Below are positions 26,075 to 63,786 of a DNA stretch of 64,000 nucleotides, piece by piece. The stretch comes from Candidatus Bathyarchaeia archaeon. GTDB taxonomy: Archaea > Thermoproteota > Bathyarchaeia > 40CM-2-53-6. The first letter of the stretch is position 1. Every line of letters begins with the position of its first letter. The translations under genes and the position numbers were made by a program. The stretch covers positions 800,001 through 864,000 of the forward strand of contig JBEKVV010000001.1 of assembly GCA_049513715.1 (NCBI GenBank), written 5' to 3'. Under the pieces are notes generated by a model that saw only the letters and a program-made list of their open reading frames with translations, did no database searches and had not been told where the DNA came from.

Positions 26075-26251
26075 ATGCTTGAAGGTTTCGCAAAAATCGT
26101 CCTCCCCACCAGAAGCGACCGAAGCAAAACAGGAATCCTGTACATTCCTGCGGACGTGGTCAAAGACTCATCCTTCCCGTTCGAACCAGATCAAGAGGTC
26201 GTCATCCGCATTGACGGAAAACGCCTCGTAATCGAGGAGTCGAGAGCATAA
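26075..26251 (+). CDS. AbrB/MazE/SpoVT-like small DNA-binding protein (58 aa)
   Basis: Manual read MLEGFAKIVLPTRSDRSKTGILYIPADVVKDSSFPFEPDQEVVIRIDGKRLVIEESRA; GGTGA RBS; TAATG overlap with the actin start. Confidence 0.8.
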   Translation: MLEGFAKIVLPTRSDRSKTGILYIPADVVKDSSFPFEPDQEVVIRIDGKRLVIEESRA

Positions 26252-27519
26252 TGGCCCTTGACAATTACAGAAGCCACTACACATTCGCAATGGATTTCGG
26301 AACGAGCGACTTCAAGTTCGGCCCGATCACTTGCGGCGAGAACCCTAGAATCGTAAACAACCGGGGCTACTTCCCCGACAAGAAGTCCGTCATGTACCGC
26401 GCCTTCGAAACCACCTCAGACATCATTGTCGGCGAAGAGGTACCGCTCTATCTCCAATCCATCGATGACCTTTCCTCCCGCCTCGTCTACCCAATGAGGA
26501 ACGGCGTAATCGACAAAGGAGACGACAACGCTTGGCGCGTAGTCAGCGCTCTCTCCCGCTACGGATTGGACGCCTTCAAAGAGAGACCGAACGATGGCTT
26601 TCAGGGATTCTACGTGGTAGCATCCCTCTCCTCAGTTTCACCCAGATACATGTACGAGCACCTGATGGACATTTTCAAAAACCTCAATGATGGCACCATC
26701 AAAGCCGTAACGATAATTCCACAACCCTTCGCTGTAGCAATAGGTCACGGAGTCACCACGTGTGTCGTAATCGAATCCGGCCATGGAAACAGCCAGATCT
26801 GCCCGATATCCAAGTACCCCATCCGAAGCGCGCAAGTGGCACTCAACCGCGGGGGCGGCGACGCGAACGCGATAACATCTGAGATCCTCAAAGACGCAGG
26901 ATACGGAGACTTGACCGGTGAGGAGACGCTAATTCGAAAGGTCAAAGAGAACATCGGACTTGTCCCCGCCGACCTTGACTCCGCCATTGCCGAAGCAAAG
27001 AAGCTACCCCGAAGGTTCCGGGCGAAATACAAAGTCCCAGGAACACGCGTAGAAATTGATCTGGAAAAGGACTCATGGGCTAGGTTTCTGATTGGGGAAT
27101 ACGTCTTCAACCCCAATCATGAAATTTTCGAAAGTTACTTCGGGCGCGGAATGCCTCGGCCAAAAGACGTGAAGATGGGTGAAACAACCTTCCGCGGCAT
27201 GCTTGATTTCGGCGATGCAATTGTGGCCTCCGTTGAAAGATGCCCAGTCGAGCTCCAACCCATGCTCTACCGTGAAATCCTCCTATCCGGAGGTAACTTC
27301 AGCTGGAAAGTGCCAGAGCGAATGGAAGAAATTGCGGTTGATGCTCCCACAAAAGTGAAGCTTCTCCTTCGCGATAAAGGAATCAAGAATGTTTCAGTGA
27401 AGATGACGCAAGCACCGCAGTTTTCCGTGTGGCATGGTTGCATAATCTACGGGTTCGCAGTACCAGAAAACTACGAATGGGATTGGCAGAGATTGGAGGG
27501 GTGGATGAAGCTTAGCTAA
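26251..27519 (+). CDS. Crenactin-type archaeal actin
   Basis: Phosphate-1 DFGTS, YPMRNG, IPQPFAVAI, phosphate-2 ESGHGN, LNRGG, ILLSGG and SVWHG; C-terminal EW...EGW as in crenactin. Confidence 0.93.
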   Translation: MALDNYRSHYTFAMDFGTSDFKFGPITCGENPRIVNNRGYFPDKKSVMYRAFETTSDIIVGEEVPLYLQSIDDLSSRLVYPMRNGVIDKGDDNAWRVVSALSRYGLDAFKERPNDGFQGFYVVASLSSVSPRYMYEHLMDIFKNLNDGTIKAVTIIPQPFAVAIGHGVTTCVVIESGHGNSQICPISKYPIRSAQVALNRGGGDANAITSEILKDAGYGDLTGEETLIRKVKENIGLVPADLDSAIAEAKKLPRRFRAKYKVPGTRVEIDLEKDSWARFLIGEYVFNPNHEIFESYFGRGMPRPKDVKMGETTFRGMLDFGDAIVASVERCPVELQPMLYREILLSGGNFSWKVPERMEEIAVDAPTKVKLLLRDKGIKNVSVKMTQAPQFSVWHGCIIYGFAVPENYEWDWQRLEGWMKLS

Positions 27520-27559
27520 TCTTCCGATCGAGCAAAGACTCCTGCACTACTTCCTCGCT

Positions 27560-28171
27560 ATGGGTGCACAACAAGACACGACTCAACCCGCAGAACAAGG
27601 AATCCTCTCACTTGTCGCCGGCAACGAGAAACTACGCGTTGCCATATTGAAGAATGATGCCTTCATTCAACGAAACAGAATCCTCGAATCCATATTAGCT
27701 CTAACTGCACAAAGGGGCGCGTTCAGCCAAGTCTACTTGGCTGTGCCTAGGCTCCTCGGCACCGCAATAGACGCTGCCCTATTCCGCTCACATGGCATCG
27801 GATTAGTGCTGTTTGACGAACGTAGAATCGAGGAGGTTGTTGCCCCTCAACCGATTCAAGCGCCACCACCCCAAGAACCGTCGTCCCGTGGTCCCGACCC
27901 AGCAGTCGTGACAGAGCTGGCGACGCTGAAATCAATGTACGCCGAGATGGAAAGAAGCATCACAAGGCTTCGAGATGAATTGAAAGGATTCCAAGAAATG
28001 CCTAGGGCCGCTTCCCCCACTATAGAACCAATCACCCGACCACCGTCGCTCCAACCCAACCCAATCTTCGCTGGCCAAGGTGGTCAGCTGCCATCTTTCT
28101 TCAGCAATAATCCGTGGTTAGATGTCCTCTCGAAACGTGGAAGAGTTGAGGAAGAGCAATTTGCCGCCTGA
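27560..28171 (+). CDS. Arcadin-2-like putative actin regulator
   Basis: Directly downstream of actin; globular N-terminus, coiled coil, Pro-rich linkers; C-terminal NNPWLDVLSKRG resembles the arcadin-2 actin-binding helix. Confidence 0.75.
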   Translation: MGAQQDTTQPAEQGILSLVAGNEKLRVAILKNDAFIQRNRILESILALTAQRGAFSQVYLAVPRLLGTAIDAALFRSHGIGLVLFDERRIEEVVAPQPIQAPPPQEPSSRGPDPAVVTELATLKSMYAEMERSITRLRDELKGFQEMPRAASPTIEPITRPPSLQPNPIFAGQGGQLPSFFSNNPWLDVLSKRGRVEEEQFAA

Positions 28172-28436
28172 GACCGTCATCAAAGTACCAATACGAAGAA
28201 TCCCGGTCGTCATAGATACCAAAGACCCTCTGGCACCTGAGCTTGGGCTCGACGATTTCCGCAAACTGTTCGGCCAAGATCCTCAACCTGACAGGTACAG
28301 AGTGATTAGTATCGAGGTGATTACGTCCCCGGACGACCAGCAACCCATGCTCGTTTCGGAATGCGGCAGATATTCGAGGTTTTTGCGCAGGGAAGCCGAC
28401 AATATTTACTTTAGAAGGGAACTCGATGCTCTATAG
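28161..28436 (+). CDS. Small arcade-cluster protein (arcadin-3 position) with a degenerate Zn-finger
   Basis: TTG start overlaps the previous gene; C-terminus aligns to the Cys4 motif of 58296..58595. Confidence 0.65.
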   Translation: MPPETVIKVPIRRIPVVIDTKDPLAPELGLDDFRKLFGQDPQPDRYRVISIEVITSPDDQQPMLVSECGRYSRFLRREADNIYFRRELDAL

Positions 28437-28737: not shown

Positions 28738-29670
28738 ATGAGTACGAGCACAACAACAAGGAAAGTTGGAAAAGTAACCAATTGCCCCGAATGTGGCAGT
28801 GCGAACCTCGTAGAGGATTATGATCTCGGAGAAATCATCTGCCATGACTGCGGCTTGGTCCTTAGCGAGCATGCCCTGAACCAGGGACCTGAATGGCGGG
28901 CCTTTACCAAAGAAGAGAAAGATGAGCGTGGACGCGTAGGTATTCCGACGTCATTCTCGATTCATGATAAGGGACTTTCAACCGTAATAGACCGAGTAAA
29001 CAGAGACGCCTATGGCCGACAACTTCCGCTGGCCACGAGGCTTGAAATGCTGAGGTTGAGGAAATGGCAGATCCGAACCAGGGTGCATTCCTCAGCTGAC
29101 AGAAACTTGGCTCAAGCGATGGCTGAGCTTGACCGCCTGACAGACATGCTCCACATCCCAGCCTCAATAAAGGAACGCGCCGCAATTGTTTACCGCAAAG
29201 CCTTGGATAACGGCCTAGTTAGAGGTCGCTCAATCGCAGCAATTGCAGCCGCATCACTGTACGCCGCATGCAGAATGTCCGAAACCCCAAGAACGCTCAA
29301 AGATGTTTCCGCGGCAAGCAGAATCCGCAAGAAAGACGTCGCCAGATGCTACAGACTACTAGTCAGAGAGCTAGACTTACGAATGCCAGTTGAAGACCCA
29401 GTCAAATGCATCTCTAAGATCGCAACGAAAGTGGAGATATCAATGCCAACGCAACAGCGCGCAATCAAAATCATCAACGAGGCCAAGAGGATGGGCATTG
29501 TTGCCGGCAAGGACCCAATGGGATTAGCTGCTGCATCGCTCTACGTGGCTTGTGTGCTAGAAGGGGAAAAGAAAACCCAGAAAGAGATAGCTGAAGTAGC
29601 CAACGTCACCGAAGTTACCGTTAGAAACAGGTACAAGGGTCTCAAAGAAGCCCTGAAACTTGACATCTAA
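28738..29670 (+). CDS. tfb: Transcription initiation factor IIB
   Basis: CPECG zinc ribbon, GPEWRAF, two cyclin repeats, VTEVTVRNRYK. Confidence 0.97.
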   Translation: MSTSTTTRKVGKVTNCPECGSANLVEDYDLGEIICHDCGLVLSEHALNQGPEWRAFTKEEKDERGRVGIPTSFSIHDKGLSTVIDRVNRDAYGRQLPLATRLEMLRLRKWQIRTRVHSSADRNLAQAMAELDRLTDMLHIPASIKERAAIVYRKALDNGLVRGRSIAAIAAASLYAACRMSETPRTLKDVSAASRIRKKDVARCYRLLVRELDLRMPVEDPVKCISKIATKVEISMPTQQRAIKIINEAKRMGIVAGKDPMGLAAASLYVACVLEGEKKTQKEIAEVANVTEVTVRNRYKGLKEALKLDI

Positions 29671-32432
29671 CACGGTTGACGCGGCTTAACAGCTGTCTCA
29701 AACCTTTCTTTTATTTTCCCGATGATTTCCCGTTCGCTCATGCCGAACACTATTGCTTTGCATTCCAATGCGTTCCGTATTGGGTGAACCTTCACTCCTT
29801 CATCCGTTAGGATCCGCATTTCGTCTGAGGCGTTTTCGAAATTCGCTGAAGGCAATACTAGATCCGTCACGCGAACACGACGTGACTTCAGGATCCCAAT
29901 AATTTTCCCTGTCTGCGTCCCGTAGCCACCCAATCCTCCGACGGGCCCAATGTCGAGCTTTACTCCAATCGTTCCTGTGGCAACGATGGACGGCGAAATT
30001 GACAATCCTGAAAGCTCTGATACGAGAGAAAGGACCATAGCCAATCCTGCACTTGGCCCAGAAACACCTTGGCCTAGCCCGCCCTCCAGAATGCTGCGCA
30101 CTTGGAAGTGTACGTGCACCTTGCTCAAGTCGATGCCACTAACGCTCCAGAGCCATGACCTGACCGCTTCGGCCGCGTTTTCAGCACTTTGAGGTACCGA
30201 CTGGTCCGGAATTACTGCTTGACCAATAACAGCGGATGTCGAGTTGCCTGTCACAGACACGGGCTGCTCTCCGGCAACGATGGGTCTGACAGAGCATTCG
30301 ACCGTAATGATCCCTCCACTGCCGTCCTCTGTGGCATACAATCCGTAAGAGGCTCCGGCGATCGGAGTCGTCGGAATCAGCGCCTCTTCCATCTCCCTCC
30401 GCTGATGCTCTTGGGTTGACTCCAACGCTTGGATTGCTTTCTCGAAATGATAGAGTCGAATGGGGTAATTTGATTCATCTATCCCGCTGAGGTCTGGCAA
30501 CGGTTTCTCGCTTTTTGAGATTTCGATGACATCTTCCAGCCGTTTCAGGTCTGCTTCGTATCGTTTTCTGACAGATGAGGCTTCGACGCCTTCCTTCTTG
30601 GCTCTGAGCTCATATACTGCGCTAAGCTCGGACGCCCACAACCGGTGTGCCTCCGATATGGTCTCGGCGGCTGCTCGCGGGCTAAGGATCCGTTGCAATC
30701 TGAACAGGCGTGTGATTTTCGGCGCGTCAATCTCTGCGTGGAGAAAGCGTTTGAATTTTCTGAGGTGAATTTCTACAACCTCGTTCCATTCCCTGTCGTT
30801 GAGGGGCGTGTGAATGTAGAAGACGTTTGGTTCAAAGCGGTCCCTGGTTGCATTGTCTATGAGATTTTCTTTGTTCGAGGCTGCGATTATGACAATTCCT
30901 TCGTCCGGTTTGATTTCACTTAGCTCCGACTTGACCTGGGCGAGGATCTTGTTCCCGGTCGGATCTGCTCCCCAGAAAATTGCGTCTGCCTCGTCGAGGA
31001 ACAGTATGCACGGGGACCGTTGCCTTGCCACGGCAAACAGGTCCTTAATGCGCTTCTCTGGTTCACCGATGTAGCTTGCGCCGCTCATGAGTTCGCCGCC
31101 TCTGACTTTTATGAAAACAACTTTGTTCTCAGCAGCCGCGACTGAGGCCAGCAACGTTTTCCCTGTACCTGGTGGTCCGAAAAGCAAGAAACTGCAGTTC
31201 GAAGCGTACCCTAGCTCCGACATTTTGCGGTTGAAAGCGAGCGATATGTGGTTAAGCACTTTGTCGCGAACATCATGCAACCCCCCGATATCGTCTCGGG
31301 AAACCTTAGGCGCAACAATGTAAACGGAGTCCATGATTTCCTGGGACTTCCCCTGCTCAACGTAGAATTTCATAGAGTGGGCCGCTAGAGCGAAATCCTC
31401 TAGGGTTACTTTGTAGATTGGTTTGGTCCACTTTGAAAGCGGGCCAGGCATCGACCTTCTTATCGTCTCCAGCAGGGGCACTTCTTTGGCCCGTTTAACT
31501 TCCCTGAAGACGCTCATGATGTCGTTGGGCGTTATCGAGCCATGCCGTCTTAGCGCTGCCTCCCGTTCCATAACCTCCAACACCTCAGTAGGTGAGACGC
31601 CGCGCCACCCTTCTTCGCTCAACCTTTCCGTAACGATGACCAAATGCATGTCCCTTGTTACACCCGAGTCCAAATCTACACGCGTCAGGCGCCTACGAAT
31701 ATCTTCCCGGGTCTGTTCGTATGAGTTTGTGGCCACGATCACGAGCGTTCTTGAATCATTGTTGAGAATCTTGTCGAGCCAGCGGTTGATTTCATCCTGA
31801 ACTCGCGTATCTTCCAGTTCGGTGCCTGTATCTCCTCGAACTTTCTTGCCGAAGCTTTGAAACTCGTCTATGTAGATCACAGAAGGTGATGTTGATGCTT
31901 GCTCCAATAATCGCCCAATCTGTTTCGTGCTCCTGCCGTAGTATTCTGAAAAGACATCTGACCCTTTGATGATTATGGGCGATACGAGGACGCCGTTCTT
32001 GTGTGCTTCAAGGATCATCTGCTTCAATGAAACCATGGTCAGGAATGTCTTCCCAGTCCCGCTTTGCCCGGTGAGGCAGATTGCCTTGGGGAGCTCGTCC
32101 TTGTTGAACCATTTCTTTAGCATGGGATGCTTCAAAACGTGTAGTCTGAATGAATCCAAGAGGAGGTTGTATTCCTTCTCGCGGCCAATCAGCTTCCCAA
32201 CAGCATATCTGTTCGGTGGATACAGCCGGTCTAACCGGTGCTGTATCTTCCGGAACTTCCGGGGGGAGATTCGTGATTTTCTCCAACGGGCGAAATCCTT
32301 GTCCACCGCCCGTAATGGGATGTAGTTTAGCCACCGCAGGAGCGTGTACTTCAGCCACCACTCTGCGTCTCCCTCGGTCCCGGATTCTGTTGGCGCGTAA
32401 TTCTCCATGTCATCAAGGCTGCTTGTCGACAT
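29667..32432 (-). CDS. Tandem AAA-AAA ATPase (Cdc48-like modules) fused to a C-terminal Lon/S16 protease domain, 921 aa
   Basis: D1 GQSGTGKT / IYIDE / ATN...RRR; D2 DIGGL / GPPGTGKT / LFLDE / ASN...RDRF; Lon GPSAG...TGTI...PVGG...K; start at ATG 32432 with GGAGG and a TAATG overlap. Confidence 0.9.
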   Translation of the reverse strand: MSTSSLDDMENYAPTESGTEGDAEWWLKYTLLRWLNYIPLRAVDKDFARWRKSRISPRKFRKIQHRLDRLYPPNRYAVGKLIGREKEYNLLLDSFRLHVLKHPMLKKWFNKDELPKAICLTGQSGTGKTFLTMVSLKQMILEAHKNGVLVSPIIIKGSDVFSEYYGRSTKQIGRLLEQASTSPSVIYIDEFQSFGKKVRGDTGTELEDTRVQDEINRWLDKILNNDSRTLVIVATNSYEQTREDIRRRLTRVDLDSGVTRDMHLVIVTERLSEEGWRGVSPTEVLEVMEREAALRRHGSITPNDIMSVFREVKRAKEVPLLETIRRSMPGPLSKWTKPIYKVTLEDFALAAHSMKFYVEQGKSQEIMDSVYIVAPKVSRDDIGGLHDVRDKVLNHISLAFNRKMSELGYASNCSFLLFGPPGTGKTLLASVAAAENKVVFIKVRGGELMSGASYIGEPEKRIKDLFAVARQRSPCILFLDEADAIFWGADPTGNKILAQVKSELSEIKPDEGIVIIAASNKENLIDNATRDRFEPNVFYIHTPLNDREWNEVVEIHLRKFKRFLHAEIDAPKITRLFRLQRILSPRAAAETISEAHRLWASELSAVYELRAKKEGVEASSVRKRYEADLKRLEDVIEISKSEKPLPDLSGIDESNYPIRLYHFEKAIQALESTQEHQRREMEEALIPTTPIAGASYGLYATEDGSGGIITVECSVRPIVAGEQPVSVTGNSTSAVIGQAVIPDQSVPQSAENAAEAVRSWLWSVSGIDLSKVHVHFQVRSILEGGLGQGVSGPSAGLAMVLSLVSELSGLSISPSIVATGTIGVKLDIGPVGGLGGYGTQTGKIIGILKSRRVRVTDLVLPSANFENASDEMRILTDEGVKVHPIRNALECKAIVFGMSEREIIGKIKERFETAVKPRQPC

Positions 32433-33319
32433 TATGCATCCTCCATCGGTTTCATGTCGAAGGCCTTCTCCATCGTGAAGCGAATCAGGTACATGATTAC
32501 GATCACTCCCAAGGCGAAACCGATTACGAAAAGGTCCCAAAGGGAAAGGAAGTCAAATGAGGCTAGAAACATGAAGCGAAGTATGAACAGAATTAGAAGC
32601 TCGCCGCCCATGATTGCTACAATTGCCGCGAAGGATGCGAGTAGGAATTTGTAAGCAGTGTCCACCCACATGTACGCTTGGTCGCCTCGGTCGACTCGTT
32701 GGTCGGTGGATTCCTTTCTTGACGTTTCCCGGCGAATCCATAAGCCCCCTACTGCAAAGAACTGAACTCCCATCCCAAAGTAGAGCAGTTTCACCCAGAG
32801 TGGAAATGCCTCACCGAATTTTCCAACCCACTTGGCGAAGTTCTGGAACGGCGGTTCCGAGGCAACAACAGGTATCGTATCGTTTGGGTGGGGGTTGAAG
32901 GTAGCGTTGATGTCGAGTTCGAAGGGGCCGCTTGAAAGATAATACGTGGTGGCGTTCCTGGTTAGACCGCTATCCTTGTTCTTGACGAAGAGATTGACAG
33001 TGTAGTCACCTGGAGAATCGAAGAGTACTCGAATCTCGTAGCTAGAGGGCTCGGTGGCTGATACTTCGAACCCGTTGGCTGGATATTGTTGTGGTTTTGT
33101 GAGGTTCATGTAGGTGAGGTTTCCGGTTAGGAAGAGTTTCTGGATCGCAGTGTGGTCGCTTTGGACAACGAGCGATTGCCGAATGGTCAGCTGCATGTTT
33201 TGAGTTCGAGCGAGTGTTTGGTCTGCGTAAGCCCATCGAGCACTTGCTATCGCGATGGTCAGGACTATGATGAGAATTACCCATTGTTTGTGTGGGTGGT
33301 GGTTGGTTTTCGTCGCAAT
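32432..33319 (-). CDS. Membrane protein: signal peptide, beta-rich extracellular domain, three C-terminal TM helices
   Basis: The frame stays open upstream of the track ATG (33196) through KQWVILIIVLTIAIASARWAYA; only a non-canonical ATT (33319) is available as start. Confidence 0.75.
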   Translation of the reverse strand: MATKTNHHPHKQWVILIIVLTIAIASARWAYADQTLARTQNMQLTIRQSLVVQSDHTAIQKLFLTGNLTYMNLTKPQQYPANGFEVSATEPSSYEIRVLFDSPGDYTVNLFVKNKDSGLTRNATTYYLSSGPFELDINATFNPHPNDTIPVVASEPPFQNFAKWVGKFGEAFPLWVKLLYFGMGVQFFAVGGLWIRRETSRKESTDQRVDRGDQAYMWVDTAYKFLLASFAAIVAIMGGELLILFILRFMFLASFDFLSLWDLFVIGFALGVIVIMYLIRFTMEKAFDMKPMEDA

Positions 33320-33395
33320 CTTCCGTCCTGGGAGAGTGCAGGTCGCTCTTCCAGGTTGGGGTATATTAATGTTCCTTTATTGGTACATTAACGTA

Positions 33396-33608
33396 TCAAC
33401 TATTTTTTTGTTTACCAGAATCCTCTCTATCGAGCTCCAAAACCAACTTGCCAACATAACCACAATCCGTGCAGGCCCAGTCCGGAGGCAGAAGCCACCC
33501 ACCAAGTGATCCACGCTGTTTAATCCTAATACTTCCACATACCGGGCAAGCCAAAGCTCCTGGCCCAGAATGACGCAGATTCTTCACTGTATCGAAAAAG
33601 TCACCCAC
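33396..33608 (-). CDS. Small zinc-ribbon protein
   Basis: CPVCGS...GWLLP...CTDCGY. Confidence 0.8.
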   Translation of the reverse strand: MGDFFDTVKNLRHSGPGALACPVCGSIRIKQRGSLGGWLLPPDWACTDCGYVGKLVLELDREDSGKQKNS

Positions 33609-36283: not shown

Positions 36284-38671
36284 TTAGCGCTTCAGCGCTG
36301 CGATGATGCCTCCAACAATCCCGAGGAGCATTCCGGCGATGAAGCCTCCGCCGATTATGAGGCTGAAGATTGCGAAGGGGAAGACTATGATGTCGGCGAG
36401 TGCGCCGTTGCGAAGGACCATGATTATCGAACCCATGATCAGAACCAGGCCTATGATAACCCCTAACGCGAACCCGTACAGTGGCCCGATTAAGGGAAGC
36501 CAGAAGAATATTCCCGACCAGACGCCGAAGAAGCTAGGAGAGAGCAGGGCGGCCGCGTTAAGAATCACAAGAATCCCAGAGACCAATGACAACGCGAACC
36601 CGAAGATACCCCTACCGCCCACGCGGCCAGTGGGTCGAACTGCCATCGGAATGGGTCGAGCCAGAATGACTTGGGGTCTGCCGCAGAAGGGGCAGTAGAC
36701 TGCGTGCATGGGCATCATTCTGCCGCACCACTTACATCGAATCATCGGCAGCGGCAAAACATGCACAACCCTCGGCCTGGGTCTCATTCGAACCGGAGCA
36801 GGTACGACAGCCCGAACGGGTCTGCGACCTTTTCGGAACGCCAAGATACCCAACAACAACGCCAAGCCCAGAGCAAGCAGGATTAGCAATAGAAGGAGCC
36901 AAAAGTTCACGTTAGAGGTTGGCGGCTGGACGATCCTGAAAAGCACGTTCGTGGTGTGGAAGAGCGGTCCACTAGCTCCGCTGATGGTTAGAGTATAATT
37001 ACCCGGAGTGGCCTGCTGAGCCACACAGACTTGAAGGTTCGAAGTCACCGTCACACTGGGGGGCGGGGTGACCGGGTTGGGCTGAATTATGAAGGTGGTC
37101 TTTGGTGGAAGACCGGTCGCGTTCAACGTAATAGGTGAACTGAAGTTCCCCTGTGGCACAATTGATACAGTATAGTTTCCGCACTGCGTTAGATTAAGCG
37201 CCAGAAGCGGAGTTGCCGAGATAGAGAAGTCATTGGGCGGGACAGTTACGACAAGTTGAACTGTAGTTGTCCGCATGATCGCGGGAAGTAATGATGTCCC
37301 CGTAATAGTCAGGGTGTACGTGCCTATGGGGGTGTTTGTACTTGTGGAAATTGTCAGTTGGGAGTTTGCCGTTCCACCAGCGGGTGGTGTCACGCTGCCT
37401 GGGGAGAAGCTTGGTGACGAGAACGAAGGAAGCCCAGTAACCTGGAGGTTGACTTGTGAGCTGAACCCTCCTATCGAATTCACGGTGACTGCGTAAGTTG
37501 CGGTGCTTCCAGCCTGAACGGTGACGGTTGGCGGGGTCGCTGAAAGAACAAAGTCAATCTGTGGGCCGTGAACGAATTTGTTTCCGTAAACCTGCTCAAC
37601 AGCATAGAACCCTGCACTGCCAACGGGCAACTGTTCCTGTGGGTGGAATCCAAGGCCCTCGACGATTCCGTTGCCGAACTGGAAATAGAAACCAAGTATA
37701 GCATGACGGAATGGCACACCGAACTTGGTGCTGTCCATTAGTATTCTGACATCGGATGTGTGAGCCGGGTTCACGCTAGCAACGGCGTAACCACCACCCG
37801 CGGTGACCAGCGTGATGTCGTTGGGGTTCGGGCCAGCATTGTAGTATTGGCTTGGGAATTCCCCTGGGAATGTACCCGACGGAGCGGGGGGGTTGTGCAT
37901 GACTGAAGCCCAATTTCCGCCCTGGTTTGGTCCTATGAGTTGGACGTATCCTGGAAACGTCTGTTCGAGGTCTTTCAGGGCAATGTCAGTGTAGATTATT
38001 TCATTGCCCGCTTGGATGTGGGTTCTAAGATTATTGTAGACGGCCTGAACCTGAGCCTGCACAGTCGGCGTGAAAGTTGAGGGATCGCCGAACCATCCTG
38101 GACAGTCAAGGACAATGAGCGAGTACTGATTGACGATTGAGGGATTGGCTAAGACATCGTCGGGGCTGATGAGTGTGTAGTTTATCTTCATTTGGTCGAG
38201 GGTGAGGTCGGTTCTTCCCCAGATGCCCTTGATCACGAGAATATTAGTTGGTTGGCGAACAAAGAAGACTTGATTGGATGTGAACGGCGCGGTCAGCCGT
38301 GTTACGGTTACCTTATTGAAATTCACAGAAGACAGAAGCGCATTGACTTGGGCGGAGAACCTGTCCTCGATTAGGAACGGCCCTCCTTGATAGACTGCGC
38401 CGCTTGGTGTGAGAGCCGTTTGCATGCTGACGTCTGGCGGTTCGATGACGCGAGCCATCTGAAGGCCGGGCGCACTACGCAAGAACTCATGGATAAAACC
38501 GTACACGCGGATTCTATCGGCTTGTTTACCGTCCATCGGCACTACGAAAGTTCCGACTGGAAATGTTCCAGCTGCTAGTGGCGGCAGTGCAGCGGAAACC
38601 GCGTACAATGCAGGAGATATGAGAACAATGAATAAAACGAGGCACGCGAGCAGTTTCGTGGGTCTATTCAT
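36284..38671 (-). CDS. Multidomain surface protein: GATase-like N-domain, two DF-repeats, TM, zinc ribbon, Gly-rich membrane domain
   Basis: Signal peptide MNRPTKLLACLV...; DFVLSATP and DFSISATP repeats; CKWC..CPFC; C-terminal GGGFIAGMLLGIVGG. Confidence 0.85.
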   Translation of the reverse strand: MNRPTKLLACLVLFIVLISPALYAVSAALPPLAAGTFPVGTFVVPMDGKQADRIRVYGFIHEFLRSAPGLQMARVIEPPDVSMQTALTPSGAVYQGGPFLIEDRFSAQVNALLSSVNFNKVTVTRLTAPFTSNQVFFVRQPTNILVIKGIWGRTDLTLDQMKINYTLISPDDVLANPSIVNQYSLIVLDCPGWFGDPSTFTPTVQAQVQAVYNNLRTHIQAGNEIIYTDIALKDLEQTFPGYVQLIGPNQGGNWASVMHNPPAPSGTFPGEFPSQYYNAGPNPNDITLVTAGGGYAVASVNPAHTSDVRILMDSTKFGVPFRHAILGFYFQFGNGIVEGLGFHPQEQLPVGSAGFYAVEQVYGNKFVHGPQIDFVLSATPPTVTVQAGSTATYAVTVNSIGGFSSQVNLQVTGLPSFSSPSFSPGSVTPPAGGTANSQLTISTSTNTPIGTYTLTITGTSLLPAIMRTTTVQLVVTVPPNDFSISATPLLALNLTQCGNYTVSIVPQGNFSSPITLNATGLPPKTTFIIQPNPVTPPPSVTVTSNLQVCVAQQATPGNYTLTISGASGPLFHTTNVLFRIVQPPTSNVNFWLLLLLILLALGLALLLGILAFRKGRRPVRAVVPAPVRMRPRPRVVHVLPLPMIRCKWCGRMMPMHAVYCPFCGRPQVILARPIPMAVRPTGRVGGRGIFGFALSLVSGILVILNAAALLSPSFFGVWSGIFFWLPLIGPLYGFALGVIIGLVLIMGSIIMVLRNGALADIIVFPFAIFSLIIGGGFIAGMLLGIVGGIIAALKR

Positions 38672-38970
38672 CGATGTGTGCCTCAATTCTGATTCATAAT
38701 TGAGCTCTTTTCGGCTTTTGGAGCCAGATGCTAGCTTAGCCACCCGTTGGTTACTTAAGACTTGAGTTCATTGGCTCCACGCTGACTATTTAATACGCCA
38801 TTTTCTCTTTTGCGGACATGAATGAAACAGCCCAACTTGTTTTACGCAATTTCATCCCAATGGGCTGCCGATATTTGTATGAAAGGTGCATTGAACAACA
38901 ACGCCGGAATCCCTTGGGAGTTGAAACTGCGGCTTGCTCCCCCTAACTCACGCCGAACCCTTCGACGAGG

Positions 38971-59496: not shown

Positions 59497-61056
59497 CTAG
59501 CCACCAACCACGACAAACTTGGCCACTAGAATCAGCAACCTCTCGAAGCGTCTGGGGGCAATGCTCCGGACGAACTCCACATCATCCTTCGTCAATATGT
59601 GGAACGCGCGCAAGGAACCAGTGTAGATTGCGGCCCCAACCACCACCATAATGGGCAGCATCAGGAGTTTTATCAAGAACGTGTGGAAGAACGCAAGGAC
59701 CACGAACACGACGACCCCCATCAATGTCGAAGCGCCCGCTGCGCCGAGGAAGGCTTTGAGGTCGATTTCCAGAAATCCGCTCCTTTGAACCGCAATTGCG
59801 TAGATTAGGGCGGCGAGAATCATCAAGCTCGCCCGCCCAAAAGCGGGGCCACTTAAGCCAAGAATCGGTGTAAGAACGTACGACACTATTAGAAGACTGA
59901 TGAGGCCGAGCACGTTAGCGCCCGCGTACCATTTGAGCTCGCCAAGAGCCAGAAGCACACCAGCATAGACTGCCCCAACCGCCGCCAACCCCGTCACAAT
60001 GGAAACGATCATGGAGGGCGCCAGGCCTGCAACATAATCGAGTCCGAAGATTCGCAGAGCAACTTGAGTGATCGCGGCAAAACCGAAGGCAATGGGCAAG
60101 ACGACGATGGAAACGTACCGGGTATACGTGCGTACCATATGACGCATCTCCCGCTTCTTGTTTGAAGCATGCAGGGCGGAGAGGGCTGGGAGAAGCACGG
60201 TGACCAAGGCGTATGGTGCGAAGCCTGCGAAACTGGCCGCGACGATTGCCACGTTATAGATTGCCAGCTCCTGCAAACCCCGCTGGGCCAAAGTGAAAAT
60301 CTTGTCCGCCTGATTGATTGCGAAACCAATCAAAGCGCTGAACAGGGTATAGAGCGAATACTTGGTTAGGTCGGAAACAGAGAACCCCGTGGCCTTGTCA
60401 CTCCCGCCATGAATTCTTCTCAGGGATCTTTGAAGGGCGATTGTTAGCAGAATGGCGTCGCCAATAATCCAACCAACCAGCACACCGACTATGACGTATG
60501 GAACCAGGAGGAGAGAGGCCAGAGTATACCGAGCCACACTCCACAGAATGAGGTAGATCGTGGCGCTCCTCATCTCCCCGAGAGCGATGAGTGAGCCAAT
60601 GCACACTTGTGCTACTCCGAGTACTAGAACATCCACGGCCGAGAGTTGAATGTAGATTGGCAGGATTACTTGGCCACCAATGAACGGTGCCACAGCGCCT
60701 GGAACCAGCGTCAAGACCACTGCGATTATCCCACCAAGAATCACGGCCGAAGCCAGACTGATCCTGAAAACCCTCGCGACGCTCTTTTGCGACCCTTTCG
60801 CCACGAATTCAGGCAGAAACTTGAGAACCGCTTGCGGCGCGGGGATGGGAGATTGAACGGTCACGGGTTGCGCAAGTATACAGATCGTAACCAAAAGCCA
60901 GATCGTAATGTTCAGTGCCGTAACGATTCCAACTTGCGTCGTTGAGCGCAGAATGTTTGTCAAAACCAAGAAGTAGAGCGTGTTCGCCAACAGTACAACG
61001 ACATTGGCCACATAGAGTGAAGTAGCGCCTCTCGCTACGGAAGCTTGACTTTCCAA
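59497..61056 (-). CDS. Oligosaccharide flippase (Wzx/MOP superfamily)
   Basis: About 14 TM; VARGATSLYVA, INQADKIF and LLPALS. Confidence 0.85.
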   Translation of the reverse strand: MESQASVARGATSLYVANVVVLLANTLYFLVLTNILRSTTQVGIVTALNITIWLLVTICILAQPVTVQSPIPAPQAVLKFLPEFVAKGSQKSVARVFRISLASAVILGGIIAVVLTLVPGAVAPFIGGQVILPIYIQLSAVDVLVLGVAQVCIGSLIALGEMRSATIYLILWSVARYTLASLLLVPYVIVGVLVGWIIGDAILLTIALQRSLRRIHGGSDKATGFSVSDLTKYSLYTLFSALIGFAINQADKIFTLAQRGLQELAIYNVAIVAASFAGFAPYALVTVLLPALSALHASNKKREMRHMVRTYTRYVSIVVLPIAFGFAAITQVALRIFGLDYVAGLAPSMIVSIVTGLAAVGAVYAGVLLALGELKWYAGANVLGLISLLIVSYVLTPILGLSGPAFGRASLMILAALIYAIAVQRSGFLEIDLKAFLGAAGASTLMGVVVFVVLAFFHTFLIKLLMLPIMVVVGAAIYTGSLRAFHILTKDDVEFVRSIAPRRFERLLILVAKFVVVGG

Positions 61057-62130: not shown

Positions 62131-63786
62131 TTATCGCCCGTTCTTTTTTCTTGCCGCAAATAGGGCAGCGAATACTAACAACCCCACTGACACCTGTATT
62201 AGCAAAGTAGTCCTGAACTCTGGCACGCTGTTTTGGCCACCAATGAGAATCTCGGTGGCACTGTTGGTGTATGTGAAGAAGACGTAATAGTTGTTCGCGT
62301 CGGTGAAGGTTGAAGGGCTGAAAGTGTCCGAGCCCGATATTACTACGGGCTCTCCGTTCAACAAAGTCTTTGGAATCACCATGTCCATTACACCAATCGG
62401 GTTTGATTGATCAGTTGTCGATATTCTAAGAAGCATTGAGGTTGAATTGTAGACGACGTTGCTAACCTGATTATTGCTTGTGATTTGGACGGTAGTCGGT
62501 ACTTGGGGCAGGTTCAATGGCACGGTCGCGAGGTTGCCGACGTGGCCGGTTTTGAGGAATGCAACTATGTCTTGTCGAATGAGGGGCTCGGTTGATGTTC
62601 CAAGCCATGTGTGAGAGTACGGTAGAGGGTCGAGTCTGGTCAGACCGGGTTGAGCGTTCTTGAACCATTGTCCTGCAGTTTGAACGCTGATCGTTCCGGA
62701 GTCATCTTTGCCCCATACTAGTATGTGTGGGATGGACACTTCGTTTGAGATTGATGCGGTCGTGAAAACCGATGGATCCGTGTGGGTTCCTGTTTCCGTT
62801 GGTCCAGTCAGCTCGGCATCCATTATCACTGCCAGGTCGAGGATTCTTTGGAAGTCGTGTGTTAGGGCCCAAGCTGAGGCCACGCCGCCCGCGCTCCAAC
62901 CAATCAGGTAGACTTGGCTCATGAGGAAACCGTGCTTCAGAAGAGCTCCAAGCACGAGCGGGAACGATGGAACGTTGGGCACATACCACCCAACGGGTGC
63001 GATGACGTTGAACCCTGCAGCTGCGAGGTAGTTGAGGAAGCCTGTTGTGGCGTCATCCAGTTGGCTAACTCCATGCAGCGAGTCGAGTTCGTAGCCGCCC
63101 CCAACGAAGATGACGGCGGGCAGCGTGGGTGAAGTTAGCTGAATGTATGACCCGCGCCCGCCTAACCCTTGCGAGTAATAGAGCACGGGGACGTTTCCGG
63201 AGGCGGAGGCGGTGTTCGTGGAGTAGGAGCCGTTGGATGTTGCGGCCCAGTTTGTTGTTGGGTCATTCATTTCGAGGGAGTAGTATGCGATGCTTGAGCT
63301 GGGGAATTGAGGGACCGTGAAGCTGAAGCGGAAAACTCCGTTGGAGTCCGAGGTGGCGTGCAGGTTGTTCGTCGGGTCATTATACTGCACCTGTACACCG
63401 GCTTCGGCTTTGCCGTACTGGTCACCAATGAACCCTGTGATCTGGACTACTTCGCCTGGATGAGCTTCGATGTTGCTTAGGATGAAGGCGTATTGACAGC
63501 AGTTGACGGCAGATGATGTTTGTGTTGACGGTCCACTGGTCGTAGTGGTGGTTTGAGTGCTGAGCTGAGTGGTGGTTGTCGAGTTGGTGGCTCCGTTTGT
63601 TGTGCTGTTTGTGAAAGTGGTATTTGCAGTTGTGATGAATGAGGTTGTTCCGGAACCAGACGATGTGTTTGTGAATGTTACCGACCCAGCAGAAACAGGG
63701 GTCAAGATGTGAGCGGACAGTAAGATTCCAACAACTAGGAATATGATGATTGCGAGTCTGCGCTTACGCGCCAGCAGGGTCATCAT
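62131..63786 (-). CDS. Secreted alpha/beta-hydrolase with Thr-rich linker and PEF-type C-terminal sorting signal
   Basis: Signal peptide; GWSAGG nucleophile elbow; WGKDD; YSH; VPEF-TM-RKKNGR. Confidence 0.85.
   Translation of the reverse strand: MMTLLARKRRLAIIIFLVVGILLSAHILTPVSAGSVTFTNTSSGSGTTSFITTANTTFTNSTTNGATNSTTTTQLSTQTTTTTSGPSTQTSSAVNCCQYAFILSNIEAHPGEVVQITGFIGDQYGKAEAGVQVQYNDPTNNLHATSDSNGVFRFSFTVPQFPSSSIAYYSLEMNDPTTNWAATSNGSYSTNTASASGNVPVLYYSQGLGGRGSYIQLTSPTLPAVIFVGGGYELDSLHGVSQLDDATTGFLNYLAAAGFNVIAPVGWYVPNVPSFPLVLGALLKHGFLMSQVYLIGWSAGGVASAWALTHDFQRILDLAVIMDAELTGPTETGTHTDPSVFTTASISNEVSIPHILVWGKDDSGTISVQTAGQWFKNAQPGLTRLDPLPYSHTWLGTSTEPLIRQDIVAFLKTGHVGNLATVPLNLPQVPTTVQITSNNQVSNVVYNSTSMLLRISTTDQSNPIGVMDMVIPKTLLNGEPVVISGSDTFSPSTFTDANNYYVFFTYTNSATEILIGGQNSVPEFRTTLLIQVSVGLLVFAALFAARKKNGR

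Follow-up and report, generated by a model that had tools for sequence, protein, structure and literature searches.

The working principle of an AAA+ unfoldase that feeds a chambered peptidase is already known. Cdc48, VAT and p97 carry two classical AAA modules in tandem, and Cdc48/VAT is described as docking to the 20S proteasome through a C-terminal HbYX motif (PMC5070193). FtsH and the related m-AAA and i-AAA proteases join a classical AAA module to a zinc-dependent M41 peptidase. Archaeal LonB, as in A. fulgidus, T. onnurineus and H. volcanii, combines a Lon peptidase with an AAA+ module that PMC5039278 assigns to the HCLR clade, and its proposed role, according to PMC4343526, is membrane quality control. 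Here we analyse a gene pair in a 64,000-nucleotide stretch of DNA from a Candidatus Bathyarchaeia archaeon (contig JBEKVV010000001.1, positions 800,001 to 864,000), which we call the window. One gene (29667..32432) encodes a protein of 921 amino acids with two classical-clade AAA modules and a C-terminal Lon/S16 peptidase domain, and the gene upstream of it (32432..33319) encodes a membrane protein, here called the partner; both lie on the minus strand, as do all features within them. On balance we lean towards reading the pair as a two-component, membrane-acting ATP-dependent protease that works like FtsH or LonB and is a member of neither. By sequence, the pair comprises two intact AAA modules, an intact Ser-Lys peptidase domain, a protease without a membrane helix and a co-inherited membrane-protein gene.

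The protease frame (protein P0001) is open throughout, from 32432 to 29667. Pfam models match it as AAA in two stretches (E 1.5e-49) and as Lon_C at residues 688-885 (E 7e-9, 36 bits against a cut-off of 21.1), with no match to CDC48_N or CDC48_2. Module D1 (residues 76-345; 31398..32207) includes Walker A at G122-T129 with K128, the pore loop E163-Y-Y-G with Y164/Y165, Walker B at D189/E190, and I245-RRR, with R246-R248, in its second homology region (SRH). Module D2 (residues 372-600; 30633..31319) has DIGGL at residue 381, Walker A at G419-T426 with K425, the pore loop S453-Y-I-G with Y454, Walker B at D480/E481, N520, and T529-RDRF with R532. A preliminary description of this DNA had proposed two AAA modules with Walker motifs, EYYG and SYIG pore loops, DIGGL ahead of D2 and no recognisable Cdc48 N-domain, all of which agree with these results. 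It had also given both modules Arg fingers; in D2 one of these, R532, is invariant, and R530 is kept in only 41 of 73 rows of the family alignment. Residues 601-685 (30378..30632) extend the D2 lid and connect it to the peptidase; this variable segment is helical in the model and is the least conserved part of the protein (36% median identity among 41 near relatives). The Lon/S16 peptidase domain occupies residues 686-900 (29733..30377).

The protease ATG at 32432 has one base in common with the stop codon of the partner (TAATG). A longer ORF (open reading frame) of 957 amino acids that starts with TTG was rejected because it overlaps the partner and because relatives start at the ATG position. 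At least 120 relatives have 59-100% identity, most of them full length, and relatives are mostly Candidatus Bathyarchaeia. As for read support at the fusion junction, single contigs from sequencing runs that are possibly the source DNA cover 29500-33500 and span the gene with 0 differences in 3 of 4 runs, and the partner gene likewise has no difference in such contigs. Because full-length relatives exist and single contigs cross the region, the fusion is not an assembly artefact.

Conservation was assessed in a family alignment of 73 rows, representing 70 distinct sequences down to ~30% identity. Both Walker A lysines, both Walker B Asp-Glu pairs, R246-R248 of D1, and N520 and R532 of D2 are invariant in 73/73 rows. 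Ser794, the predicted nucleophile within GPSAG (30051..30053), and Lys843, the predicted general base (29904..29906), are invariant in 109/109 and 73/73 rows, as are the surrounding glycines in 73/73, and these codons are the ones that the preliminary description had picked out. A Ser motif with a downstream Lys is present in 255 of 261 full-length proteins by pattern search, and the 6 that fail the pattern do so in some cases through truncation or frameshift. The peptidase domain is as conserved as D1, at 59% versus 60% among near relatives and 32% versus 31% among distant ones. The domain's profile finds its closest matches in the LonB proteins of A. fulgidus (1z0b, E 1.5e-20) and B. subtilis (8dvh, E 3.7e-17), and it also matches T. 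onnurineus Lon and LonA. The structure model, a monomer only (predicted local distance difference test score, pLDDT, 72.8; predicted template modelling score 0.46), superimposes its peptidase domain on E. coli Lon (1rr9) with Z 20.2 and a root-mean-square deviation (rmsd) of 2.6 over 180 aligned residues, and Lys843 starts a helix at 841-849. The profile aligns Lys843 with the catalytic Lys of Lon after an insert of 4-6 residues that follows PVGG. The Ser-Lys spacing is 49 in the window's protein; of the 73 rows, 72 have either 47 or 49, and in E. coli Lon it is 43 (S679/K722). The protein is very probably an active ATP-driven protease.

In a different reading of the same domain, the protein would extract or remodel membrane components, and its Lon domain would play a structural part or have little activity, as in RadA and BrxL, which are not known to show protease activity; extracted proteins would pass to the 20S proteasome or be recycled. 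The altered loop before Lys843 and the few members without dyad motifs would suit such a role, and the Lon-like domains of RadA, BrxL and ComM fit the fold almost as well as Lon does (Z 16-19). However, the invariance of the dyad and its glycines argues for catalysis, the profile is far closer to active LonB and LonA than to RadA (E 1.5e-20 versus 0.077), and the 73 family C-termini have no HbYX motif in common, so we consider this reading very unlikely. Two members carry additional domains: the Nitrososphaerales protein P0134 has a second peptidase domain, of BSP type, after its Lon domain (residues 970-1112), and P0147 has an intein with a LAGLIDADG domain inside D2 (residues 569-876).

The proposal that the protease lacks membrane segments, made in the preliminary description, is borne out across the family, since no segment in any of 72 proteins reaches a Kyte-Doolittle hydropathy of 1.8; the protein encoded in the window shows one segment at 1.53. 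In the model, D1 is preceded by about 75 residues, most of them helical. Within them, residues 25-70 (32223..32360) form basic, aromatic helices with a median net charge of +10 (range 7-15, n=72), compared with a background 99th percentile of 5.5, and a median of 7 aromatic residues versus 3 in the background. These ~45 residues, helical at low confidence in the model, occupy the place of the Cdc48 N-domain and may face the membrane or the partner.

The partner is predicted to be a protein of ~295 amino acids with a signal peptide or first hydrophobic helix (residues 10-26; 33242..33292), an eight-strand beta-sandwich that is presumably extracellular (residues 36-142; 32894..33214), and a three-helix membrane part with a basic loop and then a short acidic tail (residues 174-287; 32459..32800). 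Its frame is open above the first ATG (33196), and the extra stretch encodes a signal-like helix that is present in homologues; the real start is probably a non-canonical ATT at 33319. The start that gene callers place at 33196 drops the signal peptide. The partner's model (pLDDT 87) contains the signal helix, the beta-sandwich (pLDDT 93-97 at residues 41-140), a short helix and three long helices. N-x-S/T sequons number 1-6 per protein, with a median of 4 in 54 sequences, and an acidic C-terminal tail occurs in two of three partner subtypes. Across partners the ectodomain is variable and the membrane part conserved. Some lineages have lost the beta-sandwich, and at four loci (L059-L061, L064) the partner consists only of helices, with 124-134 amino acids, so the membrane part is the core of the protein. 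No Pfam family scores above its cut-off in 58 partner members, and matches in the Atlas are all below the bar. Structure comparison, which hardly covered the ectodomain, gives generic helical bundles as its top matches, with Z no higher than 8.2, and Foldseek returns nothing at E 0.001 or better, only weak Ig/cohesin-like rows. Complex prediction of the protease N-terminus and D1 with the partner's membrane part scored 0.30, 0.33 and 0.27, on both sides of the mark of 0.32.

Partner homologues lie next to the protease in 44 of 49 near loci; of the five exceptions, four have no DNA upstream and the fifth is missing the gene's 5' half. The same holds for 33 of 34 further loci, where the single miss has a gap of Ns and one locus (L065) repeats a near one (L016). 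At three loci (L078, L079 and L096) the partner lies on the opposite strand, yet is still adjacent. We searched 201 genomes of the class and 401 of the phylum with a profile built from 19 diverse family members. In the class sample the partner occurs in 32 of 36 family genomes and, as weak matches only (E about 1e-6), in 2 of 165 genomes without the family. The three partner subtypes are homologous to each other (hhalign 94.8% and 94.5%) and pair with three ATPase subtypes in 30/30 same-strand pairs (the L079 row was left out). No fused partner-ATPase was found by searching for longer proteins with a partner alignment, which is weak evidence, and none of 261 full-length ATPase proteins has an N-terminal membrane helix or a partner match. 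The preliminary description, which missed the partner gene, had called the protease self-contained; that term leaves out an overlapping, dedicated membrane-protein gene upstream that is inherited together with it. Variations on the pair include two partner genes in tandem (G180:C1:112972-114541), a second partner copy away from the pair (G043:C6:44956) and a genome with two copies of the pair (G196).

The receptor-like build of the partner and its strict pairing with the protease could also point to signalling proteolysis, in which the partner is a sensor, or itself the substrate, and an external signal picked up by its ectodomain would activate the protease against one or a few regulatory targets. 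The probable ATT start would keep such a partner scarce. This seems unlikely to us, in that four loci dispense with the ectodomain and no regulator gene recurs beside the pair in the loci compared, where the flanks vary by lineage.

The whole architecture is found in 36 of 201 class genomes and 49 of 401 phylum genomes and spans at least 15 family-level groups. Sources of members include Bathyarchaeia, Marsarchaeota, Nitrososphaerales, Brockarchaeota and Thermoproteota, and one member is recorded as Nealsonbacteria, possibly through misbinning. In the Atlas there are two clusters from archaea, and one from bacteria with AAA+Lon_C and ~1140 amino acids (score 0.98), the last as a lead only. A metagenome scan gave only generic AAA or Cdc48-like loci, which were used as tree outgroups. 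Such a patchy range, with subtypes that cut across classes, would be compatible with an antiviral system in which detection of a virus by the membrane protein leads the protease to degrade a target of the virus or the host; Lon domains also occur in BREX, and P0127 has a weak BrxL match. We find this scarcely credible. The flanks are housekeeping genes in conserved order, prevalence within taxonomic families is high (20/26, 13/14 and 5/5), PADLOC matches cover the generic AAA core while 0/3 partners match anything, and plasmids, phages and viral contigs contain no full-length relative.

The genome from which the window comes (G000) also encodes proteins that we label, by reading their sequences, Cdc48, CdvC/Vps4-like, 20S proteasome and a soluble LonC-like protease. 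In 3 of 8 other family genomes checked, the only Lon_C protein belongs to this family. Membrane LonB-like genes are present in 28 of 201 class and 25 of 401 phylum genomes, with the family co-occurring in 0/28 and 0/25 of these; their products have two membrane helices in 6/6 checked. The LonB-like proteins of the class (L098-L103) have two such helices and GPSAG at the catalytic Ser, and score below the TIGR00764 cut-off. Four genomes have stand-alone S16 peptidases of ~300 amino acids with an N-terminal hydrophobic helix and GPSAG (L115, L232, L233 and L235). At G000:C1:623240, on the plus strand, a frame of 557 amino acids encodes a single classical AAA ATPase, preceded by a segment that resembles a signal peptide, a region rich in beta structure and one membrane helix; by hidden Markov model comparison it is not homologous to the partner.

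PAN matches 93 of 401 phylum-sample genomes, and in that sample neither G000 nor any genome of the window's class has a match. This absence, together with the lack of a membrane helix, would fit a soluble protease of general function that stands in for PAN or LonA in degrading cytosolic proteins, with the neighbouring gene co-regulated and its product non-binding. PAN nevertheless co-occurs with the family in 7 of 49 genomes (one of them below the cut-off), class members without the family also lack PAN, and a general replacement of PAN was rejected on these grounds. The partner's adjacency, moreover, survives inversion and holds across classes, and we judge a soluble role highly improbable.

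With respect to descent, most trees recover D1 as one well-supported group and D2 as another, the exception being D2 in the C20 tree. These trees were built on domain subsets, and P0231 and P0135 were left out of the LG tree and of the approximately unbiased (AU) tests. The C20 mixture-model tree separates D1 and D2 from all Cdc48, PAN, Vps4 and FtsH domains with a Shimodaira-Hasegawa-like approximate likelihood ratio test support of 100, the LG tree joins D1 to Cdc48 D1 with support 99, and FastTree on 362 domains places neither D1 nor D2 inside Cdc48. The AU test rejects neither D1 with D2 (p 0.55) nor D2 with Cdc48 D2 (p 0.59). Both AAA lids have a common proline motif (TP.D and SPR) where Cdc48 has GAD, which hints that D1 and D2 may have arisen by a duplication of their own. 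The term Cdc48-type in the preliminary description thus fits as resemblance, in the tandem modules and DIGGL, and not as membership: phylogenies recover D1 and D2 as clades of their own, and their link to Cdc48 shifts with the model. In the peptidase tree, which included no euryarchaeal LonB and leaves the deep split open, the family domains group weakly (72/35), apart from LonA, membrane LonB, LonC and the small anchored S16 peptidases.

Among described systems, Cdc48/VAT/p97 is similar in its tandem classical AAA modules, DIGGL linker and aromatic pore loops; VAT is the best PDB sequence match (E 1.7e-51) and p97 provides the best Foldseek matches. Unlike these proteins, the family has no N-domain match and carries its own peptidase after D2, and the window's genome has an ordinary Cdc48 besides. 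FtsH, m-AAA and i-AAA likewise couple classical AAA to a C-terminal peptidase at a membrane site, which we infer for the family as well, and D2 superimposes on A. aeolicus FtsH (4ww0) with Z 24.0 and rmsd 2.5 over 245 aligned residues. The family differs in having two AAA modules instead of one, a Ser-Lys S16 instead of a Zn M41 peptidase, and no membrane helices of its own in place of FtsH's N-terminal ones, with the anchor on a separate gene. Archaeal LonB has a Lon peptidase with the same Ser-Lys dyad and yields the best profile matches, but its single HCLR AAA+ module has inserted membrane helices, whereas the family has two classical modules with none, carries GPS(A/L)G, and has extra length in the loop that leads to the Lys. 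LonA, which has a LON N-domain and one HCLR-clade AAA+ module, falls in a clade apart, and the family, with its two classical modules, has no such Pfam match. BrxL of BREX, RadA/Sms and LonC resemble the family, by fold matches, in that they join a Lon-like domain to a motor of a different kind. The motor is MCM-like, RecA-like or Lon-type in these systems, none of which has tandem classical AAA modules or such a partner.

The window's protein lacks defining features of Cdc48, LonA, LonB and FtsH alike, and it scores below every NCBIfam cut-off, with 167.3 of 802.65 bits for CDC48 (TIGR01243), 46 of 608 for lon, 21.6 of 516.6 for LonB and 113 of 600 for FtsH. No solved structure among the matches listed spans the AAA-AAA-Lon build, and no description of it was found in the literature searched, arCOG/asCOG, InterPro, MEROPS and subscription papers being outside that search. 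It is not mentioned in the accessible parts of PMC11237479, PMC10936438, PMC5898192 and PMC5070193, and Lon has no match in the available supplements of PMC10936438 (file 7 excluded) and PMC11237479 (one file). The preliminary description, which could assign the architecture to no described family, was to this extent right, and the family with its own membrane subunit is apparently undescribed so far.

If the pair is a membrane-acting protease, six chains might stack three rings (D1, D2 and peptidase), by analogy to p97/VAT, FtsH and Lon. The basic, aromatic N-terminal helices would hold the ring with its D1 face against the inner membrane surface, perhaps by contacts with lipids and with the loop or tail that the partner exposes to the cytoplasm, and the partner would anchor the ring, present substrates, or both. 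The D1 and D2 pore loops would then extract membrane or membrane-associated proteins and thread them into the Lon chamber, where Ser794 and Lys843 would cleave the chain. The job of the pair could be membrane-protein quality control or turnover, as for FtsH in bacteria and LonB in euryarchaea. By analogy with these systems, the protease probably acts with its partner at the membrane; whether the substrates are membrane proteins seems evenly balanced.

Several observations weigh against this proposal. The Cdc48, 20S proteasome and soluble LonC-like protease of the same genome mean that the family is not the sole protease. The exclusion of LonB is weak, as kin are not independent and, at family level, two sets of 5 and 6 out of 31 families would fail to overlap with a probability of ~0.3; moreover, 327 of 401 phylum-sample genomes have neither the family nor a LonB-like gene. 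The matching of subtypes is explicable by gene linkage alone. Within the peptidase domain, pairwise BLAST puts the gap elsewhere, so that Lys843 does not fall on the catalytic Lys of Lon, and the Ser-Lys spacing exceeds Lon's, with loop 835-839 below pLDDT 50 in the model. D1 is degenerate in some distant members (P0134, P0141 and P0153), and P0145 is without dyad motifs.

Apart from the partner, the neighbours change by lineage and include TFB, SUI1 and crenactin-arcadin genes, as well as others that we take to be GMP synthase-like and tRNA synthetase-like. In the window, a TFB gene (28738-29670, plus strand) overlaps the protease stop by 4 nucleotides at its end, and 26251-28436 (plus strand) encodes an actin of crenactin type (546.6 of 630 bits), along with a weak match to arcadin-2 and a third, small ORF. 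A link to the crenactin-arcadin cluster was rejected, as it lies beyond the convergent TFB in only ~13 of 50 loci. SPFH genes are present in 5/5 genomes checked and adjacent to the pair in none. Large ORFs at 36284-38743, 59497-61056 and 62131-63786 have no Pfam match at 1e-6. The one at 36284-38743, which recurs in 13 loci, opens with a signal-like segment and contains membrane helices as well as repeats rich in beta structure.

A bolder and rather doubtful form of the proposal makes the pair a ubiquitin-free, two-gene machine resembling endoplasmic-reticulum-associated degradation. The partner's beta-sandwich would catch misfolded exported or surface glycoproteins, its helices would form the dislocation site, and the double ring would draw the chain inwards through the membrane and directly into the Lon chamber of the same protein. 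If this were true, archaea would possess one more class of ATP-dependent protease in addition to the proteasome and Lon, and p97-driven retro-translocation would have a prokaryotic parallel. A strong LonB-like match exists in only 25 of 401 phylum genomes, and the pair offers a clonable candidate for clearing membrane proteins in 49 of 401. A p97-like double ring and a Lon peptidase in one chain is a combination found in no paper or solved structure searched, and the pair may serve as a minimal system for learning how membrane proteins can be extracted and destroyed by a double ring when no ubiquitin is involved.

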